Below, piece by piece: positions 9,882 through 36,197 of a stretch of 64,000 bases of DNA. Each line of letters opens with the position of its first letter. Positions within the stretch are counted from its first letter, which is position 1. The notes under the pieces are model-generated. The model worked only from the letters and a program-made list of their open reading frames with translations, had not been told where the DNA came from and did no database searches. Origin of the DNA: a virus; the IMG/VR virus record IMGVR_UViG_3300045995_000473. One strand, 5' to 3'. A program made the position numbers and the translations under genes.

Positions 9882-9920
9882 GTGTTACTCCTCAGTCGGT
9901 ACGGTAGTTTGCTAGGGTCA

Positions 9921-9954: not shown

Positions 9955-11486
9955 CAAACGGTATGGTCTGGCGGTGCGGGAGAGGCTGCGACCGCCTTCT
10001 CGTTTGCTAAATCAGATCCGAATATCAGCTTTCTTTCTTTCACATCCTTACGAAATGCAGCGATCTGCTCCAGTACATCGCGCGGATTCGCCCCGCGTTT
10101 TCTCATTACTTCCACCTCGGAAGCAAAGCCGTCTTGCACCAGCTGATGCCAGGCGTTCGCTTCCTTGAGCGGATCGATCCACGGCATCGATTGCGCAACG
10201 AATAACGCATCATCTTCGCTATGCTGTTCAATGTCAGTCGGCATACGTACTACGCCGGACAGGTGCGCGGCCAGCACGAACTGCTGCCAGACTGGCTGCA
10301 CAAACTGGCCGACGAATTCATCGGTCAGTACGGCGTAATGGATCCACTGCTCGACCAGCTCCTGACGCTGCGCGGAATAGGTGCCGTTATAATCGCGTGA
10401 AATGCTGGAGTAGCTGCCGCCCAGCCCAGCAGCGACGGCGCGTAACTGGCCTTGCCGGAAGGTGACGACGTTTGGATTTGGACGGTTTGAGTCGATCAGA
10501 CCAATCTCTTCGCCAATGCCAAGGTTATCGATGATCGTTCCGGGAGACAGTGACAATTCACGCGGTAAGGCATTGCCGCTGGCATCCCGCTCGGTTGAGT
10601 TAGCTGGATCGTATAAATCTGGTGAGCCTTTTTTTACATAAGCCGTCAGTGCGGCGGCGATCTTTGCCGCTATGCGCTCGGATTCTTCGTAGTCCTTGAT
10701 GTCTTCCAGCCGGGTAATCACGCTTGCAAATTCCGACACGCCGCGCATCTGGCCGATGCGGTCTATCGAGGCTAGTTGCAACATGCGCGACGCGTCTATC
10801 AGCTTCAGGTCATTGGTCTGGGTGAGCGATACACGGTCATTTGGGAAAGTCTTCCAGACATAATAGCCGGTCGGTTTTCCCCAGGTATTGCGCTGGATTC
10901 CCTGGCTGATATTTTTCCCCAAGTCGTCATAACCCATAGGGATCATGTCTGCCTCAAACATCTCCAGCGAAAACGGCACGCGTGAACCGTGATCCAAAAA
11001 CTGCACCGGCCCGGTCAGCGACTGGGTAAATACCTCACCGTCACGCAGCCAGCTTTTCGCCATCATGCGCTGAACCTTCGACCAGTGATGACGCTGTGTT
11101 ACTTCTGGGCATAAACACCAATCGCGCCAGGAATCGCGCAGCGCCTTGGCATAGTCGTCGTTGATGCTGCCATCCTTGCGACGCGGTTGCGGCTCGATAC
11201 CGATACCGTTTGGCCCGACAACATTGTTGACCAGCGTGCGCAGTGCGCCACGCGCGATGTCATGATTCTGTTCCAGGTTACGCGCCAGCGTTCGTAGTGC
11301 GACGGCGCCTTGACGGACTTGCAAATCAGGAGAGCGCTGATCTTTGGCAAATTTGCGCAGGCGTGACGGCTGTGCGGCTTCATACTGGTTCAGCACGCGG
11401 CGCGCGCTGATGCGTTTCAGACCGGCGGATGGGTTGAAAAATGAAACGAGTTTATCGAAGGGATTCAGTTTGGCGTGTTGTGGCAT
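9954..11486 (-). CDS. Portal protein, lambda family
   Basis: LARNLEQNHDIARGAL, DGEVF, NYSA-like TYSAQRQELVE, WIDPLKEA; ATG 11486 with TAGGA RBS. Confidence 0.92.
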   Translation of the reverse strand: MPQHAKLNPFDKLVSFFNPSAGLKRISARRVLNQYEAAQPSRLRKFAKDQRSPDLQVRQGAVALRTLARNLEQNHDIARGALRTLVNNVVGPNGIGIEPQPRRKDGSINDDYAKALRDSWRDWCLCPEVTQRHHWSKVQRMMAKSWLRDGEVFTQSLTGPVQFLDHGSRVPFSLEMFEADMIPMGYDDLGKNISQGIQRNTWGKPTGYYVWKTFPNDRVSLTQTNDLKLIDASRMLQLASIDRIGQMRGVSEFASVITRLEDIKDYEESERIAAKIAAALTAYVKKGSPDLYDPANSTERDASGNALPRELSLSPGTIIDNLGIGEEIGLIDSNRPNPNVVTFRQGQLRAVAAGLGGSYSSISRDYNGTYSAQRQELVEQWIHYAVLTDEFVGQFVQPVWQQFVLAAHLSGVVRMPTDIEQHSEDDALFVAQSMPWIDPLKEANAWHQLVQDGFASEVEVMRKRGANPRDVLEQIAAFRKDVKERKLIFGSDLANEKAVAASPAPPDHTV

Positions 11487-20633: not shown

Positions 20634-20915
20634 TTACGCGGCCTCCTGTGTTTGATTGGATTCGCGGTCAGCCGATGCGCCAAACACATCCGGGCGCAAC
20701 TCGTACCGGGTTACCGCGCCATTGGTGATTTCTTCGATGGCCCGGCAGTGTTCAGCAGGCGGCGTGGGCGACTCGCTGTTCAGCCAGTTCCATACGTGCG
20801 CCTGAGCAACTTTGACCACAGTTCCGTTCTGCGCATGCCAGATCCTGATTTCAGCAGCTAGTTTTACCTGACCGCCAACGAGTTCAACTGACTTTAATAG
20901 TGGGGAAATTTTCAT
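20634..20915 (-). CDS. cro: Cro-like/YdaS-like HTH protein
   Basis: GGQVKLAAEI...QAHVWNWLN...PPAEHCRAIEEITNGAVTRYELRPDVFG; divergent from repressor. Confidence 0.8.
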   Translation of the reverse strand: MKISPLLKSVELVGGQVKLAAEIRIWHAQNGTVVKVAQAHVWNWLNSESPTPPAEHCRAIEEITNGAVTRYELRPDVFGASADRESNQTQEAA

Positions 20916-20929
20916 GATGCGCTCAGAAT

Positions 20930-20991
20930 ACAACGATACTTGTTGCAAGGTCAACAATTTTCATTGTTTGACTGCTTACAACTTTGTTTGT
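20930..20991. promoter_or_regulatory. Right operator: three ACAA-N6-TTGT sites with divergent promoters
   Basis: Sites at 20930, 20954, 20978 (24-bp period); PR-like TTGACC-N18-TATTCT on minus; PRM-like TTGACT-N17-TAAAAC on plus. Confidence 0.8.
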
Positions 20992-21003
20992 AAAACTGTA
21001 GTT

Positions 21004-21354
21004 ATGAATCTTTCAGAGCGAATTGTCCTAGCGCGGACACATGCGAAGCTAACACAAAGGCAATTAGCTGATTTATCTGGAGTCACTCAGCAGTCGATTT
21101 CATTGCTTGAAAAAGGAAAGCAGAAACAAACTACTGAGATCGTTTCAATAGCAGTGGCTTGCGGCGTGAGATCTGAATGGTTGGCTCTAGAGCAAGGCGA
21201 AATGGTAAACGGCTTGCATATTGAAGACGAACGCATCAAACGTGGCGTCACTATCCTGGAACAAATGCAGGCGGATAACCGACTAGACGACGCAATGGAG
21301 TTGCTTGATTCGATTGCTAAATTCAGCCGAAAAGCCAGTGGCGAGAACAAATAA
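21004..21354 (+). CDS. cI: CI-like XRE repressor without S24 peptidase domain
   Basis: HTH LTQRQLADLSGVTQQSISLLEKG, resembling 434 repressor TQQSIEQLENG; 116 aa. Confidence 0.85.
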   Translation: MNLSERIVLARTHAKLTQRQLADLSGVTQQSISLLEKGKQKQTTEIVSIAVACGVRSEWLALEQGEMVNGLHIEDERIKRGVTILEQMQADNRLDDAMELLDSIAKFSRKASGENK

Positions 21355-21404
21355 CGTAATTCAGCTGCAAATTCAATTAAAATTTGATTTTTAAAGAGGA
21401 TTTT

Positions 21405-21938
21405 ATGGCGCTTATTAAATGTACCGAATGCGGTAAGGAAGTTAGCGATCAGGCTAAGGCATGCCCGCAATGTGGTGCCAAGAAATTCAAGCCGAAGCCA
21501 GCGAAAAAACCTCTTGGACTTTTTGCATGGACAATGATCGCGGGATTTTCGGTTTTAGCCGCAGTTAGTTCATTCTTGCCAAAAAATACAACTCAAACAC
21601 CTACTCAAACACCAGAACAGATCGCCGCAAAGACTAAGAGAGATGGTCAGTTAGAGACTGGCGCATTAGGCGCAATTGCGCTAAAGAATCGCATGAAAGA
21701 CCCGGAGGCTTTCAATCTGACTGGCGCAAACGTCAAAGACAATGGCGCAACCTGCTACGAATACCGGGCTAAAAACGGCTTTGGTGCAATCTTTCCTGGC
21801 AGCGCTGTACTAACCAGCAAGGGCGATATCTATGTATCTGATCAAGGAGATAAATTTACCCGCGCCTGGAACAGGGAATGTGCAGGAAAATCAGGCGAGG
21901 ATATCAAATCAAAAGTCCGGATGATGGGCGTACTTTAA
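21405..21938 (+). CDS. Zinc-ribbon plus single-TM membrane protein
   Basis: CTECGKEVSDQAKACPQCG, hydrophobic FAWTMIAGFSVLAAVSSFL; AGAGGA RBS. Confidence 0.75.
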   Translation: MALIKCTECGKEVSDQAKACPQCGAKKFKPKPAKKPLGLFAWTMIAGFSVLAAVSSFLPKNTTQTPTQTPEQIAAKTKRDGQLETGALGAIALKNRMKDPEAFNLTGANVKDNGATCYEYRAKNGFGAIFPGSAVLTSKGDIYVSDQGDKFTRAWNRECAGKSGEDIKSKVRMMGVL

Positions 21939-21998: not shown

Positions 21999-22259
21999 AT
22001 GAGTGTCATCGACTTCACCGACTATAAAAAGAATCTAGCCGGCAACACACCTAAAAAAATAACATTTAGGGGCGCTGTATACTTTGACGACACCAAGACT
22101 CCCTCTTCACTCAACTTCATTTTTACCATCGCAGATGGTGATGTTGCAGGAGTGATCGAAGCCGCAAAAGAATTCGGCGGCATACCCTATACCACCGATG
22201 ACGGGAAAACCCTTTTTCTTCCTTGGCCACCAGCAGCCATCGAGATTGAAGATATCTAG
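21999..22259 (+). CDS. Hypothetical protein
   Basis: 86-aa ORF downstream of cI operon. Confidence 0.55.
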   Translation: MSVIDFTDYKKNLAGNTPKKITFRGAVYFDDTKTPSSLNFIFTIADGDVAGVIEAAKEFGGIPYTTDDGKTLFLPWPPAAIEIEDI

Positions 22260-22527
22260 TGAAATCTTCGGCGCTATTCACTTTCACCCCTGAAGCCTGA
22301 ACGGAAGATATTTTCGACTGGCCGCGCTCTCTAACGTAGATCGCAAGGCTCTCCTGTAAAGCTTCAGCAATATTCCGTGCGCTTGCCTCATCAAGCGATA
22401 CACGTACCACCCCTCCTTCGCCCATCTCAAATATTACCCCGATCCGGCCAGCCCTCCTGTCAAACCGCGTGGCTCTACCCCACATCGCCCGTTTATAGCA
22501 ATTTGGCAACTTAAATAGCATTGTCAT
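22123..22527 (-). CDS. Hypothetical protein similar to 20292-20633
   Basis: IGVIFEMGEGGVVRVSL versus IGISFNMPDGGIVRLAL. Confidence 0.45.
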   Translation of the reverse strand: MTMLFKLPNCYKRAMWGRATRFDRRAGRIGVIFEMGEGGVVRVSLDEASARNIAEALQESLAIYVRERGQSKISSVQASGVKVNSAEDFTRYLQSRWLLVAKEEKGFSRHRWYRVCRRILLRLRSLLQHHHLRW

Positions 22528-22539
22528 ATCCTTAATTTT

Positions 22540-22570
22540 AACCGCCAGATGTCCTGACGGTTTTTATTTT
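22540..22570 (+). terminator. Intrinsic terminator upstream of PL
   Basis: AACCGCCAG-atgtc-CTGACGGTT followed by T-tract. Confidence 0.5.
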
Positions 22571-22579
22571 ACCTTAAAT

Positions 22580-22622
22580 ACAATTATTCTTGTTGACGTA
22601 TCAACAATTATAATTGTATAGT
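22580..22622 (+). promoter_or_regulatory. Left operator/promoter (PL-like) with two ACAA-N6-TTGT sites
   Basis: Sites 22580-22593 and 22604-22617 (24-bp period); TTGACG-N18-TATAGT. Confidence 0.75.
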
Positions 22623-22822
22623 ATCTCCCATACCGCAACCACAGCGGAGATGCGCTGCCAAGGTGACGCGAGCCGTAGTCCTCCATATCGGGGCCAACAC
22701 GAAAAAAAATGGATTCATGGAAGTTGACGGTGCAAGTCCATGTCTGAATAAACCGTACTGCCGGCAGCCAGATAAAACTGCCAACCAAGCAAAAACCGAC
22801 AAACTTACACAGGTAAATCATC

Positions 22823-23005
22823 ATGCCAAATTCAAAATTTAAATTTGAACTCGAACAACAGGTAACCATCACCGCCAGCGGCGAAACCGGTGAAGTAATT
22901 GGTCGCGCCGAATATGCGTATGCCGAAAAATCCTACTTTATTCGTTACAAATGCGGCAATGGCTGCGCGGTTGAAGCATGGTGGACTGAATCTGCGCTGT
23001 CTTAA
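22823..23005 (+). CDS. Hypothetical phage protein
   Basis: 60 aa; first ORF of rightward early operon. Confidence 0.65.
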   Translation: MPNSKFKFELEQQVTITASGETGEVIGRAEYAYAEKSYFIRYKCGNGCAVEAWWTESALS

Positions 23006-23058
23006 AACAAAACATACCTTTTAGATAACTAAAATTACTAATTGCGAAGGAAGAAATC

Positions 23059-23409
23059 ATGTCAAAACCTATCAACGAAACGCTGCGTCTGCTCAGCGGC
23101 GATACAGAGGGAAGCAACTTTCTCGATGATGTTTCCAACGCGATGGCCGAGCTGGTGACCGCCGTCGATTCCACCGGCAAAGGCGGCGAACTCAACATCA
23201 AGATCGTTCTGAAAAAAGCGACGCGCGGTGCTGTATCGGTAGCCGGTAAGTATTCGATCAAGAAACCGGTCACTGCGCCAGACGTTACGCTGCTGTTCAG
23301 TACGCCTGAAGGCAATCTGCTGACACAAGATCCACGTCAGCAAAATCTGGAGCTCAAAACCGTCGCCCAGGCCATTGCTGTACCACTCAAACAAGTAGGA
23401 GAAATGTAA
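23059..23409 (+). CDS. Hypothetical phage protein (partner of DUF2303 gene)
   Basis: 116 aa; AAGGAAG RBS; ends 2 nt before DUF2303 gene. Confidence 0.75.
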   Translation: MSKPINETLRLLSGDTEGSNFLDDVSNAMAELVTAVDSTGKGGELNIKIVLKKATRGAVSVAGKYSIKKPVTAPDVTLLFSTPEGNLLTQDPRQQNLELKTVAQAIAVPLKQVGEM

Positions 23410-23411
23410 TC

Positions 23412-24242
23412 ATGCAAGAAAATCAAGAAAATATCGCCGCTACAGTCGCGCGTGAAGCACGTAAGCCATTTCCTTTACCGGACAAACCAGCTTATGTCGC
23501 TGTTCCAGATGGCTGGAATCTTCAAGATACCGAAGCGCTTGATGCTTGTCCGCGCCGTAAAAAATCTACCGTCAGCCTGGACGACGACACCGGCTATATC
23601 GATTACATCAAGCGCCATGGCGCGCCTGACCTCACCACAATCTGGTGCGATGCAGATTATGAAAAAGGTCGTATCGGCTATACCTGCGTGCTGAATGATC
23701 ATGCTGGTGATGAAGGCGGTCAGGAATGGCGTGACCATATCGCCCGTTTTACTCCGGCTCAATCGGTAGAGTGGAAACGCTGGATCGACAAAGACGGCAA
23801 GGTTATGGATCAACTTGAGTTCGCGACATTCATCGAAAACAATCTAGCTGACATTGCAACCACTGAAGGCCTGCCATCTGGTACGGACATGTTGCACATG
23901 TCTACCAACCTTGAGATTACTCAGGACTCAAGCATCAAGAGCGCAATCCGCATGCAAAGCGGCGGTGTGCGCATTAGCTATATCGAGGATGAAAACGCCG
24001 AGACGGCCAAGTTCATGGAGGTTTACAGCCAGTTTGCCATCGGCATTCCGGTGTTTCGCGGCAGCGATGCATACCAGGTAAACGCCCGCCTTAAATATCG
24101 CCTGAACGGCGGAAAGCTCAAGTTCTGGTATGAGCTGATCCGCGCAGACAAGGTAATGGAAGCGTCAGCAAAAAGCCTGACAGTGAAGATTCAGGAACAA
24201 ACGACCTTTCCTATATTCCACGGCAATCCATTCGCAAGATAA
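23412..24242 (+). CDS. DUF2303 (YfdQ-like) family protein
   Basis: SVEWKRWI...MDQLEFATFIENNLADI, FAIGIPVFRG, ARLKYRL. Confidence 0.8.
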   Translation: MQENQENIAATVAREARKPFPLPDKPAYVAVPDGWNLQDTEALDACPRRKKSTVSLDDDTGYIDYIKRHGAPDLTTIWCDADYEKGRIGYTCVLNDHAGDEGGQEWRDHIARFTPAQSVEWKRWIDKDGKVMDQLEFATFIENNLADIATTEGLPSGTDMLHMSTNLEITQDSSIKSAIRMQSGGVRISYIEDENAETAKFMEVYSQFAIGIPVFRGSDAYQVNARLKYRLNGGKLKFWYELIRADKVMEASAKSLTVKIQEQTTFPIFHGNPFAR

Positions 24243-24287
24243 CTTAATACGCCCTGCCCGGCTTCGGGTAGGGAAAAGGAGAAAATC

Positions 24288-24722
24288 GTGCCTCAACTTC
24301 CACCAAAAGATCCGCCCCCAGACCCAGCAAATCAATATCTCCAAAAAATCGAGTTTGGCGGATTGATTTGGGAGAAGTCACGCCGATCTGATACCAATGA
24401 ATACACCGCTCATCATCCGGATATTGGAGATTTGCGCATATTCCAATATCCGAAAGAATCTTCATGCGACGGAGAATGGCTTTGGAATGCTGATATAGAC
24501 ATCCTATTTTCCAGGGATGACGCTCCAAAATATATAGAGACGCGCGTCAGCAATATCGTGGAAACAGCAGAAGAGGCAATGGCTCACTGCCTGCGCGCCA
24601 GGGAATACTTGATCGAGGACATCAAAAAACTATCAATGCATTTTAAAGTTGGCGGTTACCCCAGCGGGTTTGAAGATGGTCAGGCGGCACTTGCTAAAAA
24701 AATTGCTGCGGTGATGCCATGA
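24288..24722 (+). CDS. Hypothetical protein
   Basis: 144 aa, GTG start with AAGGAG RBS. Confidence 0.7.
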   Translation: MPQLPPKDPPPDPANQYLQKIEFGGLIWEKSRRSDTNEYTAHHPDIGDLRIFQYPKESSCDGEWLWNADIDILFSRDDAPKYIETRVSNIVETAEEAMAHCLRAREYLIEDIKKLSMHFKVGGYPSGFEDGQAALAKKIAAVMP

Positions 24723-24922
24723 CAGAAACGACTTTCTACGTGAACGTCTCTGCGGATCGGATGGATGTCTGTGATGGCGCCATCATCGCTTACATGATGA
24801 CCAATCCAGACTCCAGCGTCGATGACGCTTTAGATGCCATTTTTAATGTGGGTATGAATGTCGTCATCGCCATCAACCCAACTTTCCAAAACAATCAACC
24901 AGATGAGGTCTGCATATGCTGA
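24719..24922 (+). CDS. Hypothetical protein
   Basis: 67 aa, ATGA-coupled. Confidence 0.6.
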   Translation: MTETTFYVNVSADRMDVCDGAIIAYMMTNPDSSVDDALDAIFNVGMNVVIAINPTFQNNQPDEVCIC

Positions 24923-25071
24923 ACCGAGCAATCCTTGTTCCGCGCCGCAAGCCATATACGCAAACGCACTGGACTGTGCGTGTAATCCGCTGCATTCAAC
25001 ATTTCCGATACTACCGAAAACAGAGAATGTGCATCTCCGTTTCCTGGGCGCTTGCGAGGCACACACTATGA
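24916..25071 (+). CDS. Small basic hypothetical protein (not in ORF track)
   Basis: MLNRAILVPRRKPYTQTHW...SVSWALARHTL, 51 aa, GAGG RBS; stop overlaps next ATG. Confidence 0.55.
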   Translation: MLNRAILVPRRKPYTQTHWTVRVIRCIQHFRYYRKQRMCISVSWALARHTL

Positions 25072-25247
25072 GCACTCTTAACCTAAAAATTACCGCGTTA
25101 CGCCAAGCTGCAATCGATGCTGCGGTCGAACTAGACTGGACAAAAAATGAACCAGGTGTACAGCCTGAAATTCAAGAGCGAGCAGTCAGCATCATCCAGC
25201 GCGTGTTCGCAGCCTGCGAAGCTTTAGATGAGGCTGAAAAGCCATGA
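25068..25247 (+). CDS. Hypothetical protein
   Basis: MSTLNLKITALRQAAIDAAVEL..., ATGA-coupled at both ends. Confidence 0.55.
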   Translation: MSTLNLKITALRQAAIDAAVELDWTKNEPGVQPEIQERAVSIIQRVFAACEALDEAEKP

Positions 25248-25807
25248 GCAAGCCTAAAGCAAAGCGCGATAAAGCCTATCGCCCTAAAGGTGTGCGGATC
25301 CCGGTCACTAGTCTGCGTGATGAATTTGGCATTGTGCTGCACAGCTGCATCGTCGCTGCGCGCAATGGGCATTTCGATAAATCTCAATTTGACCGCATCG
25401 GGCAGGCGATCAATTGCGTATGGGGCGCGCTGTATTTAAAGCCGCCGAAAGACATCTCGGTGATGACGGTTGTTGAAGGTGCTATGCGCGCGATGAATGA
25501 TGTATCTGAGCGCGGCGATGCAACCGGACACTGGTTGCTGCGCGATTTTGAGCAGGCCGCCGTACTGGCAGGCATCCGCAAGATCGAAGAACAACTCCCC
25601 TACATGGACGTGATGATGCTGTATCGCGCCATGCAGGAAATGAAAACGCTCTCTCTCGCAGAACGCACGATTCGCTCGGAAGATATTCAATCCATCAATA
25701 TTCTCAACGAAAAAACGGGCGAAATTATCCGAATTGAAAGAGCAGCAGTAGGCAAGTTAACTAACCATAACAGCAAGGAGAATAGCAGTGAAACCAATCG
25801 AATTTGA
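25244..25807 (+). CDS. Hypothetical phage protein
   Basis: 187 aa, basic N-terminus, operon-coupled. Confidence 0.7.
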   Translation: MSKPKAKRDKAYRPKGVRIPVTSLRDEFGIVLHSCIVAARNGHFDKSQFDRIGQAINCVWGALYLKPPKDISVMTVVEGAMRAMNDVSERGDATGHWLLRDFEQAAVLAGIRKIEEQLPYMDVMMLYRAMQEMKTLSLAERTIRSEDIQSINILNEKTGEIIRIERAAVGKLTNHNSKENSSETNRI

Positions 25808-26351
25808 TCTTGGTGGCGGCGTAAAAATGGCGCTGCCTACCGAAACTGTCGTACGCAACCTACTCGACAGCCTACGCCAACAACCCAGCACTACCAAGTC
25901 CAGCAGCCCGAGAATAGGCGAATACCTGACAACGGAGGGCGGCATCTATGCCGGCGACATTCTGGGTGATGACAAGGTTTTGTACGGGCTAGTCATCAGC
26001 GAGGAAATCGAGATCGGCACGGCGATCTTTGGCCATGAGCATAACGGCGATCTGTCGCAATGGAATGGCCTGTCTAACACCAATACGCTGCTCGGAAAAT
26101 CACCAGCTGCCGACTTAGCTGCGAATTATGAGCGCAACGGGCATTGTGACTTTTATCTGCCTGCGCGCCGTGAGCTGATGATTGCGCTGGCGAATGTTCC
26201 GCAGCTGTTCAACCCGAAAGACTATTACTGGTCAAGCACCCCGCGCGGCAATGATTGTGCGTGGGCAGTGTACTTCGAGGGCGGCATCGTCCGCAACAAC
26301 ACTCGGGGCAACGAGTTCCGTGTTCGCCCCTTCCGCAGATTTACCCATTAA
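25788..26351 (+). CDS. DGR target protein 1, DUF1566-like C-type-lectin fold
   Basis: IGEYLTTEGGIYAG, FYLPARREL, YWSST...AWAVYF; 3' end is VR1; AAGGAG RBS. Confidence 0.88.
   Translation: MKPIEFDLGGGVKMALPTETVVRNLLDSLRQQPSTTKSSSPRIGEYLTTEGGIYAGDILGDDKVLYGLVISEEIEIGTAIFGHEHNGDLSQWNGLSNTNTLLGKSPAADLAANYERNGHCDFYLPARRELMIALANVPQLFNPKDYYWSSTPRGNDCAWAVYFEGGIVRNNTRGNEFRVRPFRRFTH
26260..26341 (+). repeat. DGR variable repeat VR1
   Basis: Aligns to TR 27350-27431 with 10 mismatches, 9 at TR adenines and one G>T. Confidence 0.93.
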
Positions 26352-26383
26352 CCCATTTATCAATTTTTAACAGGAGAATCACC

Positions 26384-26800
26384 ATGAACGAAAAGAAAAT
26401 CACGGTACCCAAAATAGGCGAACTTTGGGCAGAGCAAGGCGGTATTTATTGTGGTATGCGCCTCATAGGCGGCGAGGAACATCACGTTGTCACGCCTGCC
26501 GGTATTGATCACGACCTCACTGAAAAAAATTTTGCCGCAGCGGAATCTGCACAGTTCGGCGAAATCAACGGCCATAGCGATTGGCAGACTGGTGAGCAGG
26601 AAGATTACATGCTGGCATATGTCAACGCGCGCGCGCAATTCAAGTGCGACGGCGGCATGGATAGCGTTTACTGGACACGCTCTGTTCATCACGGCTGGGC
26701 GTGGGCAGTGGACTTCGAGAACGGCCTCGTCTACTACGACGTTCGGCGCAGCGAGTTCCGTGTTCGCCCCTTCCGCAGCTTCATCGCTTCATCAATTTAA
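26384..26800 (+). CDS. DGR target protein 2, DUF1566-like C-type-lectin fold
   Basis: ATG 26384 with AGGAG RBS; IGELWAEQGGIYCG, YWTRS..AWAVDF; 3' end is VR2. Confidence 0.9.
   Translation: MNEKKITVPKIGELWAEQGGIYCGMRLIGGEEHHVVTPAGIDHDLTEKNFAAAESAQFGEINGHSDWQTGEQEDYMLAYVNARAQFKCDGGMDSVYWTRSVHHGWAWAVDFENGLVYYDVRRSEFRVRPFRSFIASSI
26700..26785 (+). repeat. DGR variable repeat VR2
   Basis: Aligns to TR 27350-27435 with 13 mismatches, all at TR adenines. Confidence 0.96.
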
Positions 26801-26807
26801 CAATTTC

Positions 26808-26822
26808 GCGGGCGTAGCCCGC
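26808..26822. promoter_or_regulatory. DGR target-recognition hairpin/cruciform downstream of VR2
   Basis: GCGGGC-GTA-GCCCGC, 8 nt after target 2 stop. Confidence 0.7.
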
Positions 26823-26829
26823 TAAAACT

Positions 26830-27177
26830 ATGGCACTCCATACTGACACAGCAATTTACAAGGCGACTTACCAACTGGCACAGTTGGTGATGCAACTCGT
26901 AGCAAACATGCCCAGAAACTATAAGGCAGATTTCGGCGCTGAATTGAGAAGACGTTGCATGGGGCTGGTGATGCGTACCTACGAGGCGAATACGTCGCAG
27001 GAAAAGGCACCAATCCTAAGCAAAATGCGGCAGGAAGTTGAGGCGGTTAATCTGTCTCTTCGCCTTGCTGTTGACTTGCGTCTTATATCTCATAGTCAGT
27101 ATGGGAAAGCTATAGCCATCACGGCAAGCATTGGGAAGCAAGCTACCGGATGGCAGAGGAAATCGGAATGCGCTTGA
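26830..27177 (+). CDS. avd: Avd-like accessory variability determinant (four-helix bundle)
   Basis: 115 aa helical and basic; LRLAVDLRLIS..QY...IGKQATGW; between targets and TR. Confidence 0.85.
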   Translation: MALHTDTAIYKATYQLAQLVMQLVANMPRNYKADFGAELRRRCMGLVMRTYEANTSQEKAPILSKMRQEVEAVNLSLRLAVDLRLISHSQYGKAIAITASIGKQATGWQRKSECA

Positions 27178-27446
27178 CGCCGACTTTGCCAAGGCAATTT
27201 GGACAACGCGCTATGAATCTGGTCGAGCCGCTAGGGTACGCCCTACCGCCATGCGCATCAGAAATATCGTCGGCGAATGCCGAAATGATTTCGCGCAGTT
27301 TTCTAATTGAAGCAATGCCTCGATTTGAAAACGTGAATAGCTTGAATATCGTGGGCAGTGGACTTCGAGAACGGCAACGTCAACAACAACAATCGGAACA
27401 ACGAGTTCCGTGTTCGCCCCTTCCGCAAATTCAACCGAGATTTTCT
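27178..27446 (+). ncRNA. Putative DGR template RNA region (avd-RT spacer including TR)
   Basis: Hairpins TAGGG-TACG-CCCTA (27232-27245) and TCGGC-GAAT-GCCGA (27270-27283) upstream of TR. Confidence 0.6.
27350..27435 (+). repeat. DGR template repeat TR
   Basis: AAC-rich (GAG AAC GGC AAC GTC AAC AAC AAC AAT CGG AAC AAC GAG); matches both VRs outside adenines. Confidence 0.96.
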
Positions 27447-28547
27447 ATGGATACTGAATATTCAATCGAATTACTGGCCGAGGCATATAAAGACTGCCGC
27501 CGCCATAAACGCAACACAGACAGCGCACTCCGCTTTGAGCAGAATCTTGAGCACAACCTGATTGCTTTGCACGATGAACTGTCAGACGGCTCATATAAGC
27601 CAGGGAAAAGCATCTGCTTTGTCATCACCAAACCAAAGCCGCGCGAAGTATGGGCAGCGGACTTTCGCGACCGCATCGTGCATCACCTTCTCTACAACCG
27701 CCTTGCGCCGATATTCCACGCCAGATTTATTGTTGATAGCTGCGCCTGCATACCGGGTCGAGGCACGCTATACGGCGCAAAACGGCTTGAATCGAAGGTG
27801 CGCAGCATCACTCAGAACTGGAGCAAACATGCGTATTACCTGAAACTGGATCTGGCCAACTTCTTTGTCAGCATCGACAAGAATATCTTGCGCAAACTGA
27901 TCGCAAAGCGTGTCACCGAACCGTGGTGGATGCAGCTAGCCGACACGATCCTGTTTCACGATCCGCGCCAAAACTATGAGCTGCGCGGTGAGCCTCGCAT
28001 GCTCGACTTGGTGCCGTCACACAAACGTTTAACCAACCACCCAGCACACCTCGGCTTGCCGATTGGTAATCTCAGCAGCCAGTTCTTCGCCAATATCTAC
28101 CTGGACGAGTTAGACCAGTTCTGCAAACACAAGCTACAGGCGCGCCACTATATCCGCTATGTGGACGACTTCCTGATTCTGCATGAATCACCGCAATGGC
28201 TCAACGCGGCCAAAGCCGAGATTGAAGAGTTTCTGTTCGACGAATTGCGTGCCAAGATTAACCCATCAAAAACCATCCTGCAGCCGGTGTCGCGCGGCGT
28301 CGACTTTGTTGGACAAGTAATTCGGCCTTGGCATAGAACGACGCGCAAACGCACCATCAATGAGGCGATGCGCCGCGTCAGCACTGTCGATAGCGCAGAA
28401 CTCTACGAAACAGCGAATAGCTACTTTGGGCTTATGCGTCAGGCTACTCACAGCTATCACCAAAGAGTATTGCTATCGAATGTCCTGCGTAAACGCGGCC
28501 ATACGATCAGTGCCAATTTAACCAAGACTTATAGGAAAACAGCATGA
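27447..28547 (+). CDS. DGR reverse transcriptase
   Basis: ADFRDRIVHH, YLKLDLANFF, GLPIGNLSSQFFANIYL (DGR-type GxxxSQ), YIRYVDDF; likely start MDTEYS, 366 aa. Confidence 0.95.
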   Translation: MDTEYSIELLAEAYKDCRRHKRNTDSALRFEQNLEHNLIALHDELSDGSYKPGKSICFVITKPKPREVWAADFRDRIVHHLLYNRLAPIFHARFIVDSCACIPGRGTLYGAKRLESKVRSITQNWSKHAYYLKLDLANFFVSIDKNILRKLIAKRVTEPWWMQLADTILFHDPRQNYELRGEPRMLDLVPSHKRLTNHPAHLGLPIGNLSSQFFANIYLDELDQFCKHKLQARHYIRYVDDFLILHESPQWLNAAKAEIEEFLFDELRAKINPSKTILQPVSRGVDFVGQVIRPWHRTTRKRTINEAMRRVSTVDSAELYETANSYFGLMRQATHSYHQRVLLSNVLRKRGHTISANLTKTYRKTA

Positions 28548-28810
28548 CTGAACTAACCCTATTTTTATCTACCGCCTCGCTAGTCTTTGCGCTGGGGCTG
28601 CAACAGCTCAACGTACAGGGTCATCATTACATGCTGGCAGCGCTAACTAGTTTCCTAATCGGCGGCGCACAGATCTACCTGTGGCGCACTATGCCAGGCG
28701 CATCCGGAAGCGAGATCATTGCCACCCTATGCGGCGGCCCGGTCGGGATTCTGGCAGCAATGTACTCACACCCTAGGTTAGTTCGGTTTTTATTGCGGAG
28801 AAAATCATGA
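28544..28810 (+). CDS. Small multi-TM membrane protein
   Basis: Three hydrophobic segments in 88 aa; ATGA-coupled to RT. Confidence 0.7.
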   Translation: MTELTLFLSTASLVFALGLQQLNVQGHHYMLAALTSFLIGGAQIYLWRTMPGASGSEIIATLCGGPVGILAAMYSHPRLVRFLLRRKS

Positions 28811-29250
28811 TCACTCCTCAATATATTCTCGACATTAATGAAGAAATCATCGTCGATAATTTCGCTGGCGGAGGTGGTGCATCTACGGGTATTGAACTAG
28901 CGCTGGGGCGCCATGTAGATGTGGCTATCAATCACGATCCAGAAGCCGTATCTATGCATCAAGCAAATCACCCGCAGACGGTACACCACTGCGAATCGGT
29001 ATGGGAAGTTAACCCGCGCGAAGTCATGCCAGGACGCTCAATCGGTCTGCTCTGGCTGTCACCGGACTGCAAGCACCACAGTAAGGCTAAGGGCGGAAAG
29101 CCAGTAGAGAAGAACATTCGCGGCCTCGCTTGGGTGGCACTGCGCTGGATAGCGGTACGCAAACCACGCGTCATCATGCTTGAAAACGTCGAAGAATTTC
29201 AAAAGTGGGGCCCGCTACCAAAATATCAATCGCAGGGAGCATCGGCATGA
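28807..29250 (+). pseudogene. Truncated C5 DNA cytosine methyltransferase (N-terminal part only)
   Basis: DNFAGGGG (motif I), SPDC (IV), ENV (VI), then stop at 147 aa; no TRD or motifs IX-X. Confidence 0.75.
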
Positions 29251-29480
29251 ATGACATTGAAAATCAGGTAATCAATTGCATCGCAGATCAGACCGGCCAC
29301 GATCCGGAACATATTAATCCATCTGACACGCTCCATTCTCTAGAAATGGATGAGATTGATCGGTGCGAACTGGCGATGATGATTGAGGATCATTTCGATA
29401 TCGTAATCAAGGATGCAGACGCTGAAAAATGGAGATCCGTACAGGACGTAATCAATCACATGATAAGGGCAAAACCATGA
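29247..29480 (+). CDS. Acyl-carrier-protein homologue lacking the phosphopantetheine serine
   Basis: 77 aa; LEMDEIDRCELAMMIEDHFDIVIKDADAEKWRSVQDVI aligns with AcpP [38 protein letters not shown]. Confidence 0.85.
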   Translation: MNDIENQVINCIADQTGHDPEHINPSDTLHSLEMDEIDRCELAMMIEDHFDIVIKDADAEKWRSVQDVINHMIRAKP

Positions 29481-30187
29481 GCGACGTATGCACAGAGCAG
29501 CGCTTCCTTACAGATGCCGCGCAGCATGAAATGACGATCATCCGCGATGATGGTGTGCACCGGCACATTCAATTCAAGCGGCCCGGTACCAGATGCTACC
29601 AGTTCGACCTGATCACATGGCCGGGATACCTATGCTACACGGGCGATATGGGAACCTATGTATTCACTCGGCTGCGCGATATGTTTGAGTTCTTTCGCAC
29701 CGACCGCGCCCACCTGCGACTTAAAGACGGGCAGACGCTGGCAATCAATCCGGGCTATTGGGGTGAAAAGCTTGAGGCGGTTGATAAGTGTGACGGCTTC
29801 AAAGAGTTCAGCGAAGAAAAGTTTAAGCGCTCTGTGATGGAGTATCTAGTTCGATGGATTCGTGAAAACTACAGTGATACCGACAAGGACGAGCGGCGCG
29901 AACTATGGGATGAGGTAATGAGTCAGGTTATCGATGTTGATGATGACAATAGCGGGAGCCGTAAGCAGGCCGCAGTGCACGACTTTACACGCCATGTAAA
30001 TCAGGCCCTTGACTTTGAATTCGTGGACTTCTGGGAGCACGACCTTACCGACTATTCATTCCGATTTATGTGGTGCTGCTATGCGGTGGCATGGGGCGTG
30101 CAGAAATACGACGAAAAGAAGGCAGAGCCATGCGCTCATGTTGTTTGCGAGGCCGATGTATGTGCAAAGTGTGGGGATGCAGCATGA
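29477..30187 (+). CDS. Phage hypothetical protein
   Basis: IRDDGVHRHIQFKRPG...LITWPGYLCYTGDMGTYVF; ATGA-coupled. Confidence 0.75.
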   Translation: MSDVCTEQRFLTDAAQHEMTIIRDDGVHRHIQFKRPGTRCYQFDLITWPGYLCYTGDMGTYVFTRLRDMFEFFRTDRAHLRLKDGQTLAINPGYWGEKLEAVDKCDGFKEFSEEKFKRSVMEYLVRWIRENYSDTDKDERRELWDEVMSQVIDVDDDNSGSRKQAAVHDFTRHVNQALDFEFVDFWEHDLTDYSFRFMWCCYAVAWGVQKYDEKKAEPCAHVVCEADVCAKCGDAA

Positions 30188-30212
30188 AGGAATTTATAAA
30201 GGATGGTGTGTG

Positions 30213-30437
30213 ATGAGCATGTTCATCTCTAGCAATGAACTCGCTGAGCTAACTGGCTACAAGGTTGGGTTCTATCAAGCACAGTGGCTCAAGGATCACG
30301 GCTACCCGTATGAGCTGACAATCAGCGGGAAACCACGTGTCCTGCGCGCATTCGTTGAAAAGCGCCTCGGGCTTGCCAGCGTAATTCCAAAGTCGCAAAC
30401 TGAGCCTGACTTTTCATCCTGGAAGAGAGCCGCATAA
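30213..30437 (+). CDS. Excisionase-like protein (DUF4224-like)
   Basis: FISSNELAELTGYK...QAQWLKDHGYPY...GKPRVLR; stop overlaps integrase start. Confidence 0.75.
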   Translation: MSMFISSNELAELTGYKVGFYQAQWLKDHGYPYELTISGKPRVLRAFVEKRLGLASVIPKSQTEPDFSSWKRAA

Positions 30438-31504
30438 TGGTTGGGAAACGCAAGACCGCATCATCGCTACCTCCGCGCATGTATGTCTATAAAGGTAAGC
30501 GTAAGGACACTTATTACACCATCACGGCTGACAACAAACGTCTTAATCTCGGACATGAGCTGCTGCTGGCTAAGCGCAAGCTGCTTGAGCTCGAAGAAGG
30601 CCGAAGCATATCCGGAACAATCGGCGAGCTGCTGGATGACTATCTCAAAGAGGTTAAAGCCAAGGTTGAGAATGGCAAACGCTCTGCCCTGACGCTGCGT
30701 GACAATGAAGCGGAGATCACTCAACTCAAAAAAGCATTTGGCGGTATGCAGCCGAAGGATTTACAACCTGCGCACGTATGGGCTTATCTGCACAAATTCA
30801 GGGGAAAAGACGCACCGGTTCGCGCAAATCGCGAGGTTTCTTACCTACAGGCATCATTCAATTGGGCGCGAGGACAAGGAATCGTGCGAGATAACCCTTG
30901 TGTCGGCGTACAGCGCAACGAAGAGGAGTCGCGAACCCGTATGGTCAGCGACAGAGAGCTAGACGCCTTTGTGGCATTCTGCCGCACTAATGGCCATCTT
31001 GATGATGCCAGCGAGCGCAAAGATAGCAGCGACGCAGGATTGCGCATTGCTCTGTGCGCCCGTATCGCCTATCTGACAGGGAAAGCACAGGCACAAGTGC
31101 TAAGTATTCATAAAAACCAGATAACTGATGAAGGTATTTTATTTGGCCAACGCAAACGCGGCGCTGCAACACTGGTTGAGTGGACGCCGACGCTGCGCGC
31201 TACGGTAACTGAATGCCAGGCACTCCCCAGCAAGATAATCAGCATGTATCTGATACATAGCCGCAGTGGGCAGCCATACAGCACACAAGGATTCAAAGCT
31301 ATGTGGCAGCGTCTAATGAAGGCGTGGCTGGAATCAGATGAGAGTAATGTGAGGTTCACTTTTCATGATCTACGCGCAAAAGCTGTCACAGATCTGATTG
31401 AAGATGGCCGAAAAGCCAGTGAATTAACCGGGCATAGAACTGAGAGTATTCCGGCTAAAGTATATGACCGCAGAGCTGTTAGAAAATCGAAGGCGGTGAA
31501 ATGA
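30437..31504 (+). CDS. int: Tyrosine integrase
   Basis: Catalytic-box-like FTFHDLRAKAVT and LTGHRTE...KVYDR; adjacent to att core. Confidence 0.92.
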   Translation: MVGKRKTASSLPPRMYVYKGKRKDTYYTITADNKRLNLGHELLLAKRKLLELEEGRSISGTIGELLDDYLKEVKAKVENGKRSALTLRDNEAEITQLKKAFGGMQPKDLQPAHVWAYLHKFRGKDAPVRANREVSYLQASFNWARGQGIVRDNPCVGVQRNEEESRTRMVSDRELDAFVAFCRTNGHLDDASERKDSSDAGLRIALCARIAYLTGKAQAQVLSIHKNQITDEGILFGQRKRGAATLVEWTPTLRATVTECQALPSKIISMYLIHSRSGQPYSTQGFKAMWQRLMKAWLESDESNVRFTFHDLRAKAVTDLIEDGRKASELTGHRTESIPAKVYDRRAVRKSKAVK

Positions 31505-31555
31505 TCTTACAAAATTCGCGTTTTATCTTACAAAAAGCGTAAATGATAGAAATGA

Positions 31556-31588
31556 AAAACCCGCTAACTCATTGAATTAGCGGGTTTT
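31556..31588. terminator. Bidirectional intrinsic terminator
   Basis: AAAACCCGCTAA-ctcattgaa-TTAGCGGGTTTT. Confidence 0.8.
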
Positions 31589-31591
31589 ATT

Positions 31592-31638
31592 TGGGGTGGC
31601 TGATGGGGCTCGAACCCACGACAACAGGAATCACAATC
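31592..31638 (-). other. att core: 3' half of tRNA-His(GTG), not a full tRNA
   Basis: Minus strand GATTGTGATTCCTGTTGTCGTGGGTTCGAGCCCCATCAGCCACCCCA (anticodon loop, T-arm, CCA); 5' half absent. Confidence 0.9.
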
Positions 31639-31755
31639 AGATTGTAAAATTATTGTAATCAATTAGTTATCAATGATAATTTGTAAGATACAGCATCAAT
31701 AAAGCCAATAAATACAATGGCTGATTTTTGCATCTTACAAATTTTTCAAGTATTT

Positions 31756-32307
31756 TTAACCACGATTTACTGTCGCGATATTCGGATCTGCCTGCATTTT
31801 CCCGCGATACCATGAAGCGACGCCAAGCACTGTTGACATTGCTGCCATTATCGCTGCGATTGACGCAATCATTGCTGGCAAGTAGCTTAATACTTCAGGC
31901 TTAACATTAAAGAACATCACCCCGAGGTAAGCAACCACTACTGTCATCCCTGTGAGCACTGCGAGCAGCGCATAACTGAACCCAATGGCAGGCCGCCACG
32001 AATATGTCGGCCAGTGTTCAGACGCTGCCTCGGTCTGTATCGATTTATTGATGTCGGATGCGTTCTGCACGGCCAGTTGCTGGAATGATACTTCCTGAGA
32101 CAGTACGGCCTGCCGGTATTGCAACACCAGCGCAGGGTCAGCCTGAAGAGCAGCAAGGGCTTGATCGCCCGTCGGCTTGCCCGTTACTGTCTGCGCGATC
32201 TCGATCGCCTTCTGCGCTACCTGTTCCGCTTTATCGCTTCCCGTTACCCACTTCGTAATCTGTGGCACGAACTGGGCAAGGGACATTGCAATCGTAATCG
32301 GGTCCAT
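31756..32307 (-). CDS. Holin-like protein (GTA 3TM-holin type)
   Basis: EHWPTYSWRPAIG followed by two TM helices; follows endolysin. Confidence 0.6.
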   Translation of the reverse strand: MDPITIAMSLAQFVPQITKWVTGSDKAEQVAQKAIEIAQTVTGKPTGDQALAALQADPALVLQYRQAVLSQEVSFQQLAVQNASDINKSIQTEAASEHWPTYSWRPAIGFSYALLAVLTGMTVVVAYLGVMFFNVKPEVLSYLPAMIASIAAIMAAMSTVLGVASWYRGKMQADPNIATVNRG

Positions 32308-33542: not shown

Positions 33543-36197
33543 TTAGACTACTGGCTCAATACTGCGCAGCTCGCCGCGTACCACTTCAGACATACGATTC
33601 CCACCCAATGTATTCGGGTGTAGTAATGCCCCATCGTCATTGATAAACGTGCGGATGTTTGTCGCGTTCCAGCCTGATTTACCTTGCGTGTCGATGCAGG
33701 GTATCCCGTGATATTTGCAGGCAATGCGAATCGCATCCGCATAATCTCGCGTGGTTAATCCAATCGAATTTGTGTATGCATTAGTCCAAAATGGGGACGC
33801 TGTAACGCGGGCGTACAGCTCACCGTAGGTTGTCGTCATCATTACAATGCGAGACGCGGGGAAACGAGTTAGCAGCTTCGTTACCAGTGTATAAATCGCA
33901 CCATAAAAGGTAGTTGGATCAGTTGATGCTACAGTCCCGAGAGGAATATTTTGCGCCCAGTCATTTGTGCCGCCGAGTACTGTTATCAAATCCATTGGCG
34001 TTGGAATTGCATTAATTCGAGCATCTTGACACATTGCGGTAGTGCTCCCAGATGCGCCGCTTAATGTTGTCCCAGATACACCAAAATTTGTATGAGTCAT
34101 CCCTAATGACATTGCTACATTTGGCTGCCACGCATTTTGGTTGGTAATGCTATCGCCAAGTGACGCCCACAGCTTTCCAGCCCATAGCGTTACAGGAGTC
34201 GAGTTAACAGGGAAAATAATCTCGCCATTGGTTAGCGCTAAATTGTATCCGTAGGCTTGATATGCCGTTGCCGATGCCCCGATTTCAAGTTGGAAGCTGG
34301 TGATATCTACCGTAGACAATGTGACGCGAACGAACGCTACACCTGAGGGAGCAGTAAATGCGAATGACGCAGCAGATGCGCCACCAGCAACTACGTTTTT
34401 ATTCGCGTCAAAATAGGTGGTAAAGCGCATCCCATTACCGCCAGACCCTTTTCCGTAGTACTGTGTTCCTGCAACTACAGGAATAAAGTCAGAAATCGCG
34501 AATGTAGGCTGTGTACCGACAATCGTTCCATCCGACCCCATAAAGCTATTCGCAACAAACCCCGATGCAAACCGATTAAAGCGATTTTTTCCTACTTGAA
34601 AGAAGTTAGTCTTTAACGGAGATACAGCACTATCTGCAAGTTTTGCATTAGTCACTGCCGCTGCTGCGAGCTTTAAGCTGGAAATAATCCCGTCAGCAGG
34701 AATCGGCGGGATTATCAACTCACCGTTTGGGCCGTAGACCATGAAACCAAATGTCTCATAGGCGGTTGATGCGCTTCCAAGTTCAAATTGTGCTGCCGCA
34801 AGATCAGCGGTGCTGAAAGTCAGTCTGACATAAGAAACACCAGCCGGAACGGTAATCTGCGTGGAGTTTGCACTTGCTCCCCCAGCGACAAAGCCCTTTC
34901 CTGAATCGAAAAAGGTTGTGAAGCGCATGGTTTTATTTGCCGTATATACAGATCCAGATTGCACCTTTATATAATCCGTTACGAAAAATGTCGGCTGTGA
35001 TCCAAATATTCCGCCGTCCGCACCCATAAACGAATTTGCGAGGATTGTCGCTTTATTGAAAAGGTTCCTACCGGGCGTTATAAAGTTTGTAAGGTCAGGA
35101 GAAATCGAGCCAATTGCGTGCATCAGGTTCGTTAAAGAACGCGCCTTTATCTCGGATGGGAGAAGATAAACACCATACGCCTCATATGATGTAGTGACAG
35201 ATCCAGCCTCAATCTGGAAGTTTGTATTTATTGCTGAAAAGGATACTCGTATAAATGCCGCACCTGCTGGTGCAGTGAGTGTGTGATTTGTATCTGTGTT
35301 AGACGTTCCGGATATGAATACCTTCGCTGAGGTATACCATGCGATATAGAATTTCTCGGACACGGTATAAACCGACCCTGCAACTACCAGGATGTAGCCT
35401 GAGCAGTTATATAAAGCATTGACTTGCAACGCCCCAGTTGTGGCCAGAACAAAGTTACCGGGCGCAAAATCCGAGGCGGAGGGATTGAATAAGTTTTTAC
35501 CTATTGCAAGATCAGCCTTTAACAGCAAGGAAGAGATAACTGCATCGTATGCTGACTTGCTAGGATATGTGGCAATCAGTGTTGATACAGTCACGGCATC
35601 GATCCTGCGATACTCGTACGCCGCGATAGAGCCTGTTCCTTGAACCTTGAAGTACGCGCCATTGGCTACCGCAGCGCGACCAGTTGGCTCGTCCACATAA
35701 ACACCAGCCTGAATCAATGATGCATCACGCGCGGCCTCTGCTGCCGTTTTAGCAACGGCAGATAGACCGGCTTGTGTCGTAGAAATTACAGCCTGCTCTG
35801 TGGCAATTATCACCTGTGGAGCGACAGCCGCAATACCTGCTGCGGCGCCTTCGATTTGCGCCTGTTCTTTTGTCGCGCCCTGGTGAATAATCCATTTCCC
35901 AGCCGCATAATCAGTAGCAAACACGCCAGCGATATGCGCCATCATGCTGCGATAAATAATCCCGCCCTGCGAAGCTAACACTTCCGCGTTATAGCTTGCC
36001 CCGGTTGCCCATGCGCCCATATCTGGATAGACCAGCGGCACATCTGCCAGGCCAAGCGCAGCGCGAGCAGTGGCAGATGTGCCATCACCACCTAGCAGAC
36101 CGCGCTGAAAATCCAGCGTCTGACCAAGTTTTGCTTTGAACTGCGCCTGAGTAACCGCAGGGTCAAGCAATTCGGAATTTGCGGGTAAAGTCGGCAT
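33543..36197 (-). CDS. Tail fibre/spike with three tandem beta-domains and C-terminal SGNH/GDSL esterase
   Basis: Three GKNLFN...TAPAGAAFIRVSF...FQIEAG..T.YE.YG repeats; LGDSIT, GVSG, GTND, D..LHPN blocks. Confidence 0.85.
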   Translation of the reverse strand: MPTLPANSELLDPAVTQAQFKAKLGQTLDFQRGLLGGDGTSATARAALGLADVPLVYPDMGAWATGASYNAEVLASQGGIIYRSMMAHIAGVFATDYAAGKWIIHQGATKEQAQIEGAAAGIAAVAPQVIIATEQAVISTTQAGLSAVAKTAAEAARDASLIQAGVYVDEPTGRAAVANGAYFKVQGTGSIAAYEYRRIDAVTVSTLIATYPSKSAYDAVISSLLLKADLAIGKNLFNPSASDFAPGNFVLATTGALQVNALYNCSGYILVVAGSVYTVSEKFYIAWYTSAKVFISGTSNTDTNHTLTAPAGAAFIRVSFSAINTNFQIEAGSVTTSYEAYGVYLLPSEIKARSLTNLMHAIGSISPDLTNFITPGRNLFNKATILANSFMGADGGIFGSQPTFFVTDYIKVQSGSVYTANKTMRFTTFFDSGKGFVAGGASANSTQITVPAGVSYVRLTFSTADLAAAQFELGSASTAYETFGFMVYGPNGELIIPPIPADGIISSLKLAAAAVTNAKLADSAVSPLKTNFFQVGKNRFNRFASGFVANSFMGSDGTIVGTQPTFAISDFIPVVAGTQYYGKGSGGNGMRFTTYFDANKNVVAGGASAASFAFTAPSGVAFVRVTLSTVDITSFQLEIGASATAYQAYGYNLALTNGEIIFPVNSTPVTLWAGKLWASLGDSITNQNAWQPNVAMSLGMTHTNFGVSGTTLSGASGSTTAMCQDARINAIPTPMDLITVLGGTNDWAQNIPLGTVASTDPTTFYGAIYTLVTKLLTRFPASRIVMMTTTYGELYARVTASPFWTNAYTNSIGLTTRDYADAIRIACKYHGIPCIDTQGKSGWNATNIRTFINDDGALLHPNTLGGNRMSEVVRGELRSIEPVV

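Follow-up and report, generated by a model that had tools for sequence, protein, structure and literature searches.

The virus held as IMG/VR record IMGVR_UViG_3300045995_000473 is represented here by a stretch of 64,000 nucleotides (hereafter the window), which is a 38,059-bp circular phage genome read 1.68 times. Comparison of each position i with i+38059 gave 0 mismatches in 25,941 comparable bases, i.e., the two genome copies are 100% identical there. Between positions 25788 and 28547 of the window is a complete diversity-generating retroelement (DGR), comprising two target genes (target 1 and target 2), a gene for a bAvd-type accessory variability determinant (Avd), an RT-15 structured RNA, a template repeat (TR) and a DGR-type reverse transcriptase (RT), all on the plus strand and with every reading frame intact. 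An initial annotation, made from the letters of the DNA and its open reading frames (ORFs), had read the order as target 1, target 2, avd, TR and RT; the coordinates bear this out, with the addition of the RT-15 RNA between avd and the TR, which it had missed.

The DGR Cassette

The avd gene (26830-27177) encodes a bAvd-like four-helix bundle (Pfam bAvd, 52.4 bits against a cut-off of 40) that had no sequence match among solved structures. The RT-15 RNA (Rfam RF03018; 27168-27352; 122.6 bits against a gathering score of 82, E 1.7e-29) fills the 185 nt from the end of avd to the start of the TR, i.e., it lies 5' of the TR, and occupies the same position in all seven of the DGR-bearing relatives tested. 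RT-15 is among the RT-associated RNA motifs of Weinberg et al. (PMC5737381). The TR itself (27350-27435) has 25 adenines and eight AAY codons in 27370-27402, with an additional AAA and AAC at the 3' edge of this core, and is separated by only 12 nt from the start of the RT gene (27447-28547, ATG at 27447). Recomputation of the earlier estimate that eight AAY codons allow 15^8 protein variants gave 2.56e9. The RT, of 366 aa, matches Pfam RVT_1 with 67.6 bits and retains its IGNLSSQ and YVDD motifs, and its closest solved relative is the RT of Bordetella phage BPP-1 (8ub7, E 8.9e-44).

Variable Repeats and the Candidate Target-Site Hairpin

Each target gene ends in a variable repeat (VR) matched to the TR. 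VR1 (26260-26345, plus), in target 1, has its mutagenised core at 26280-26312 and the core of its sequence for the initiation of mutagenic homing (IMH) at 26313-26336, and VR2 (26700-26785, plus), in target 2, has the corresponding cores at 26720-26752 and 26753-26776; the IMH* core of the TR is at 27403-27426. In the 86-nt register, VR2 differs from the TR at 13 positions, and 13 of 13 are TR adenines, exactly as first described. The initial counts for VR1, 10 mismatches with 9 of them at adenines, hold over the first 82 nt of the TR (27350-27431), and over the full 86 nt there are 12 mismatches, 10 at adenines, the other two being G>T at 26271 and C>T at 26342. VR1, VR2 and the TR share an identical GC-rich core of 24 nt (starting at 26313, 26753 and 27403, respectively), 3' of which the three sequences diverge. 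Arg184 of target 1 is at least 90% conserved in its family, although the TR codes for Lys at that point, and for this reason the IMH/IMH* boundary was placed at the 24-nt core; mismatches 3' of the core are therefore probably differences between IMH and IMH* rather than products of mutagenesis. An adenine-tolerant scan of the complete 38,059-bp genome, on both strands, found only VR1, VR2 and the TR, with no third VR and none in a tail gene; both the J-like tail protein and the 884-aa fibre of the phage are without a VR, in agreement with what had been said of the tail fibre.

The two VRs differ in what follows them. A GC-rich inverted repeat with a 6-bp stem and a 3-nt loop (26808-26822, plus) is located 32 nt after the IMH core of VR2 and is a candidate DGR target hairpin or cruciform, a role that would be analogous to that found by experiment in BPP-1, where efficient homing depends on a GC hairpin or cruciform located 4-34 bp after the VR (PMC3240598). 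No comparable hairpin follows VR1 or the TR. At most of the related loci that were scanned, a hairpin follows the avd-proximal VR at +30 to +34, its stem differing in sequence between loci and complementarity being kept; in those loci, a hairpin was never found after the TR, and the upstream target has one in some lineages only (L003, L009, L012, L013, L018, L023 and L045).

Activity of the DGR

The 90%-identity cluster to which target 2 belongs contains the copy in the window (P0121) and two others (P0122 and P0124). Compared at the protein level, the three differ only at the eight AAY-coded residues, which read N-L-YYDV-RS, G-Y-SDSD-TN and D-T-YYDG-YN, respectively. P0121 and P0122 are each listed from a 76,390-bp contig and P0124 from one of 38,310 bp, and since 76,390 bp is about twice the length of the 38,059-bp genome, the longer contig probably holds two genome copies. 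In addition, the contigs of sequencing run X1, likely the source of the phage, include a 79-nt VR2 variant at a depth of 24.6, beside the main contig at 88.7, and its four listed changes are all at TR-adenine positions; these are assembled Logan contigs with many holes, and they speak to the presence of a variant, not to allele frequencies or to VR1. The DGR is active, and VR2 is currently diversifying in the sampled population.

The picture for VR1 is different. The cluster of target 1 consists of one sequence, seen on 2 contigs, and no VR1 allele is recorded for the same genome copies. Diversification is seen at VR2 only, and VR1 appears to be static now, though it has varied over the history of its family. 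This asymmetry parallels that of the hairpin, i.e., the VR that varies has one and the VR that is static does not, and on the most economical view this phage would have in VR2 a complete target site and in VR1 one that is weak or has been retired. The idea of a dual-target DGR consequently stands in that both targets carry TR-matched VRs, and falls short in that current diversification is seen only at VR2, VR1 being invariant and without a hairpin.

The Target Proteins

Target 1 (25788-26351, plus; 187 aa) has a GTG start codon preceded by an AAGGAG ribosome-binding site, and target 2 (26384-26800, plus; 138 aa) consists of a DUF1566/C-type-lectin domain only. They are paralogues, as had been proposed, with 33% identity (E 9e-17). 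Both fall below the threshold for the Pfam family Lcl_C, target 1 only just (32.7 bits for target 1 and 26.7 bits for target 2, against a cut-off of 34.9). From 52 homologues, AlphaFold2 gave a model of target 1 with a predicted local distance difference test (pLDDT) score of 89, which comprises a small beta-beta-alpha module (about residues 1-30), a low-confidence linker (32-37) and a C-type-lectin-type domain. In Foldseek searches, its best match in the PDB is the C-terminal domain of Legionella Lcl (8q4e, E 3.8e-7), followed by many C-type lectins with weaker matches (E > 0.01), and the clusters of the AlphaFold database returned DUF1566/Lcl_C entries only and no functional lead. The targets have the DUF1566/C-type-lectin fold that had been expected of them. 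Among viral models, the fold is found at the C-terminal tips of long fibre-like proteins and also as small stand-alone proteins. No match to Mtd was found for the targets, no usable match came from a protein-atlas search with the 42 residues at the N-terminus of target 1, and no literature was found on the function of small phage DUF1566 proteins.

Full-length homologues of target 1 number more than 438, the named ones being from Gallionella, Alcaligenes, Bordetella, Achromobacter, Pseudothauera and Burkholderiaceae, and target 2 is likewise a conserved family. The alignment of the target 1 family is conserved except at the VR-coded columns, the variable residues being 165, 167, 169-172, 174 and 175 in target 1, and 113, 115, 117-120, 122 and 123 in target 2. 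Judged by simple rules for hydropathy and motifs, 120 target 1 homologues are without a usual signal-peptide-grade N-terminus, a lipobox, a Tat motif or a transmembrane (TM)-grade segment, which extends to the family the early remark that neither target has a signal peptide or TM helix. Cysteines number 0 to 4 in each homologue and none is conserved. Some target 1 homologues (P0025 and P0087) end in a tail of the target 2 type (…SVIASSI / …FIASTL), and this suggests that the VR/IMH ends may have been exchanged between the two targets.

Nearly every related cassette has at least two targets, and it was for this reason that target 1 and target 2 were modelled together. The complex scored an ipSAE (interaction prediction score from aligned errors) of 0.66 (0.66-0.69 in three runs), compared with 0.00 for the best control; of solved complexes, 58 of 80 attained this mark, as did 2 of 110 mismatched pairs, counts that are only rough because the complexes were run with our own alignments. 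The heterodimer runs shared at least 91% of contacts, with a partner pLDDT of 90. The modelled interface is formed by conserved helices (target 1 127-137; target 2 72-81) and the first strands of the VRs (target 1 165-169; target 2 114-117), and many of its residues are on columns that are invariant or nearly invariant in both families. The model supports a pseudo-symmetric heterodimer of target 1 and target 2, in which the two variable strands would be adjacent.

Related Cassettes in Other Phages

Sixty related loci were retrieved from contigs representing one genome per species, and TR/VR pairs were detected in them with an adenine-tolerant scoring scheme. All 44 loci that have both Avd and RT carry adenine-biased VRs, with 1,199 mismatches at adenines versus 167 others (about 100 of which come from three poor alignments), and the adenine pattern first noticed at this locus is thus far beyond chance. 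There are two VRs in 34 of these cassettes, three in 9, and one in a single cassette at a contig edge. The third VRs in the nine cassettes (among them L006 5672-6118; L014 4865-4950; L018 5060-5158; L023 4984-5082; L037 6122-6230; L043 275-387; L049 5371-5473) have mismatches at adenines only, and several lie some 5 kb upstream of the TR, within one operon with it; they are remote DUF1566 targets served by the same TR.

Wherever the flanks could be identified, the cassette is between recombination genes and xis/int and never adjoins tail genes. In prophages of Alcaligenes, Bordetella and Gallionella the order is cI(S24) ... ERF or RecT, YqaJ, single-stranded DNA-binding protein (SSB) ... target(s) ... 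Avd ... RT ... (xis) ... integrase ... host genes, and it is a Gallionella prophage that is the nearest relative of the window phage, whose host is likely a Gallionella-like betaproteobacterium of river or groundwater habitats. The same lineage, with RTs that are 62-66% identical, is present in the cultured phages Magia, vB_E192a, vB_PL1, LPPA56, the Pseudomonas phages Cruim01, Haboob and phPA-G, and Shewanella vB_Sb_QDWS. The DGR belongs to a conserved lineage that is carried by temperate phages of Beta- and Gammaproteobacteria. The window phage is a siphovirus and Magia a myophage, with the same placement of the cassette in both, and therefore the module travels with the early/integration arm of the genome and not with the tail type. 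The gene that follows the RT varies among loci (a methyltransferase, an SSB or small ORFs), and most loci are without a linked effector domain.

In some relatives the Avd-TR-RT core has been lost and the targets kept (L001 and L077). In L001, a close relative with about 88% nucleotide identity, approximately 1 kb (9056-10092) stands in place of Avd, the TR and most of the RT, both targets being retained, and the replacement contains a match to C4 antisense RNA (RF01695, 9227-9304) and an HNH-like ORF (9566-10087). Trinickia and relatives (L038, L044, L046, L047, L051-L053 and L056-L059) have tandem arrays of two to four target 1-like paralogues, with Avd and RT absent within 10 kb of the arrays.

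Position of the Cassette in the Phage Genome

The phage is a 38-kb temperate siphovirus. Its lambda-like late region, on the minus strand, encodes a large terminase, portal, protease/major-capsid fusion, decoration protein, tail terminator, tape measure, distal tail and tail assembly proteins and a lysis cassette, as well as the J-like tail protein (36207-38804, minus) and the 884-aa fibre (33543-36197, minus). Searched at the nucleotide level against GenBank phages, the DGR and the head genes gave 0 matches. The immunity region has a Cro/YdaS-like gene (20634-20957, minus) and a cI-like helix-turn-helix gene (20914-21354, plus). Directly 3' of the cI-like repressor and on the same strand, in the position of rexAB in lambda, is a gene for a 184-aa zinc-ribbon protein (21384-21938), a candidate for an accessory gene expressed in the lysogen.

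The best sigma-70-like match within 22000-32000 is TTGACG-18-TATAGT at 22593-22622 (plus; feature 22560..22622), a promoter-like site overlapped by operator-like palindromes; the palindromic operator-like site is near-repeated (16-17 nt) at 20951, in the divergent cro/cI region. This is likely the pL-type start of a plus-strand early-left operon. The string of plus-strand genes from about 22.6 kb consists of DUF2303, several ORFs, the DGR, a two-TM protein, a methyltransferase fragment, an acyl carrier protein (ACP)-like ORF, excisionase and, at its end, integrase (30437-31504, plus), an order that matches the arrangement of the lambda pL operon. It is this synteny and the operator-like repeats, not transcripts, that lead us to describe the operon as probably early and repressor-controlled; the cassette sequence was in none of the RNA sequencing runs searched. 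The DGR and the tail and lysis genes are on opposite strands, separated by int and a convergent terminator-like hairpin.

Among the genes that follow the cassette, that for the two-TM, holin-like protein of 88 aa (28544-28810; phrog_30225/7045) overlaps the stop codon of the RT (ATGA), and is kept in L001 (95%) and L060 (42%) and absent from most cassettes. The C5 DNA methyltransferase ORF in 28807-29480 is of 147 aa and matches only the N-terminal part of its family profiles, and may be a truncated methylase; the ACP-like ORF of 91 aa (phrog_5934) comes after it.

Function of the Targets

If the precedent of BPP-1 applies, a transcript with the RT-15 RNA and the TR would be reverse-transcribed by the RT with Avd, the TR adenines would be copied at random, and the cDNA would take the place of a target gene's 3' end at the IMH, with the GC hairpin helping. 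The proteins so altered are soluble and leaderless, and would be made from a repressor-controlled early-left operon (cI ... recombination genes ... targets-avd-TR-RT ... xis-int). We consider it reasonably probable that the targets, produced early upon infection or induction, form a variable ligand-binding module that works inside the cell, or once it has lysed, and is not part of the virion. That they bind defence or rival-phage proteins, as first suggested, is a speculative idea compatible with the evidence.

A number of points weigh against this reading and its parts. C-type-lectin folds usually bind extracellular ligands, and phage DUF1566 domains often form the tips of long fibre-like proteins. 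The screen for export signals applied its simple rules and not a trained predictor, and the assignment of the cassette to an early operon leans on lambda and the operator-like repeats in place of transcripts. The inactivity of VR1 is judged from about three genome copies and database cluster counts, not from reads. As to the heterodimer, variable residues are among the contacts (165, 167 and 169 of target 1; 115 and 117 of target 2), which is awkward if they are buried, and the chains being paralogous, the model may mimic a homodimer interface.

The foremost alternative is that the targets are detachable adhesins of the virion, with target 1 docking by its N-terminal module on the tail or head, alone or with target 2, the DGR switching receptors as in BPP-1, and the genes merely being outside the late operon. 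We regard this as unlikely. In its favour, the adhesin domain of Legionella Lcl and the C-terminal tips of long phage fibre-like proteins (Peptidase S74, collagen-repeat and tail-fibre entries) share the fold, the N-terminal module of target 1 on its low-confidence linker is a possible docking piece, and a change in host range was proposed by the authors of the Magia report (PMC7883833). What tells against it is the genomic position, in that the cassette is in the recombination-to-integrase arm at every locus with identifiable flanks, that this position is constant across phages of different tail type, and that in the window the cassette is on the strand opposite to the tail and lysis genes and past both int and the terminator-like hairpin. 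Moreover, the phage has a J-like tail protein and an 884-aa fibre of its own, and neither has a VR.

A more specific form of a binding module acting within the cell can be drawn from the heterodimer model, namely a two-chain variable binder like the heavy and light chains of an antibody, in which one TR would write a composite surface of 16 residues, expressed from the early operon, that binds fast-changing proteins of the host or of rival phages, e.g., defence sensors. We hold this proposal to be rather improbable.

The accessory zone near int, in which this cassette is located, is one where defence genes are often found in prophages, and DGR-based immunity has already been proposed (PMC10053308). 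The targets might on that basis be the variable sensor of a defence or exclusion module expressed in the lysogen, recognising proteins of incoming phages and protecting the host, and the two-TM protein whose gene overlaps the RT stop and is kept in two relatives would suit such a module. We think this very doubtful, however, since the cassette is downstream of a promoter that shares operator-like sites with the cI/cro region and so is probably repressed in lysogens, most loci are without a linked effector domain, and the TM protein is present in few of them. Lastly, that the cassette is a decaying relic with no present function is barely credible: L001 and L077 did lose the Avd-TR-RT core and keep the targets, and VR1 has no hairpin and two non-adenine mismatches, but here the frames and the RT catalytic motifs are intact, and three VR2 alleles that differ only at adenine-coded positions in otherwise identical genomes contradict decay for VR2. 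A variable binding module working in the infected or induced cell, or after lysis, is the reading that we retain.

Relationship to Known DGRs

The DGR of BPP-1 (mtd-avd-TR-brt) shares with the present one RT homology, bAvd, adenine-specific transfer from TR to VR, and a VR of C-type-lectin fold at the C-terminus of its target; the GC-rich IMH and the GC hairpin after the VR have candidate counterparts here. It differs in that its target, Mtd, forms the tip of the tail fibre and is encoded among the tail genes, whereas the targets here are leaderless DUF1566 proteins of 138-187 aa in a probable early-left operon. There are also two targets per TR here, and the RT-15 RNA is 5' of the TR, whereas the spacer RNA of BPP-1 follows it.

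The initial annotation had seen in this layout a different use of a DGR, and as a novelty that claim does not survive. Category d of Wu et al. 2018, which has CLec2 VRs (DUF1566/DUF823/Fib_succ_major; PMC5758913), is similar in its DUF1566-type VR and short, single-domain target; about half of the category are short DUF1566-only proteins, and two targets are found in about 13% of DGRs (PMC5758913). A category d example, LdtA of Legionella, is an outer-membrane surface lipoprotein (PMC5758913), unlike the target 1 family here, in which 0 of 120 have a lipobox or Tat-like motif. Closer still is the Burkholderia cenocepacia phage Magia (MT701587; PMC7883833), which has an RT of the same lineage and its DGR after recombination genes and before integrase (nuclease, RecT, ATPase, regulator, lectin-fold target, second ORF, Avd, RT ... 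integrase), and whose authors pointed to a possible DGR, its targets being short reading frames that contain IMH-like regions (PMC7883833). Magia and Cruim01 have, as here, short lectin-fold targets, Avd, RT-15 RNA, TR and RT in that order, and in both the cassette follows recombination genes; the Cruim01 paper does not mention a DGR. The window phage differs from the Magia group in its host lineage, in being a siphovirus where Magia is a myophage, and in having direct allelic evidence of activity and the asymmetry between VR1 and VR2.

Roles other than surface or virion binding have been proposed for some cellular targets, as we propose here. The DGR targets of multicellular bacteria reportedly include putative antigen sensors that are STAND-NTPase-linked and cytoplasmic. 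Those of cyanobacteria have been proposed to act in regulatory pathways (PMC7517822). The cyanobacterial and multicellular-bacterial targets are cellular, multi-domain proteins with signalling or NTPase modules, whereas the targets here are phage-encoded, single-domain and without an effector domain. Non-structural viral DGR targets are mentioned by Roux et al. (PMC8144416). Short DUF1566-only targets and two-target cassettes have, in sum, already been catalogued, and the same lineage has been annotated in Magia; what is new here is the allelic series showing activity, the VR1/VR2 contrast tied to the hairpin, and a heterodimer prediction tested against controls.

Concluding Remarks

DGRs are the textbook tools with which phages switch receptors. 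The lineage described here is widespread and is instead situated in a probable early operon, where it rewrites small leaderless proteins with a lectin fold, and the window phage provides a natural allelic series, i.e., three VR2 alleles on an otherwise identical background. If these proteins act inside the cell, libraries of binders made by DGRs would join the repertoire of phage–host or phage–phage conflict, and the targets would be compact scaffolds for the evolution of binders in vivo. If, in addition, the two chains did prove to form one variable binder, this would be a phage-side counterpart of adaptive recognition.

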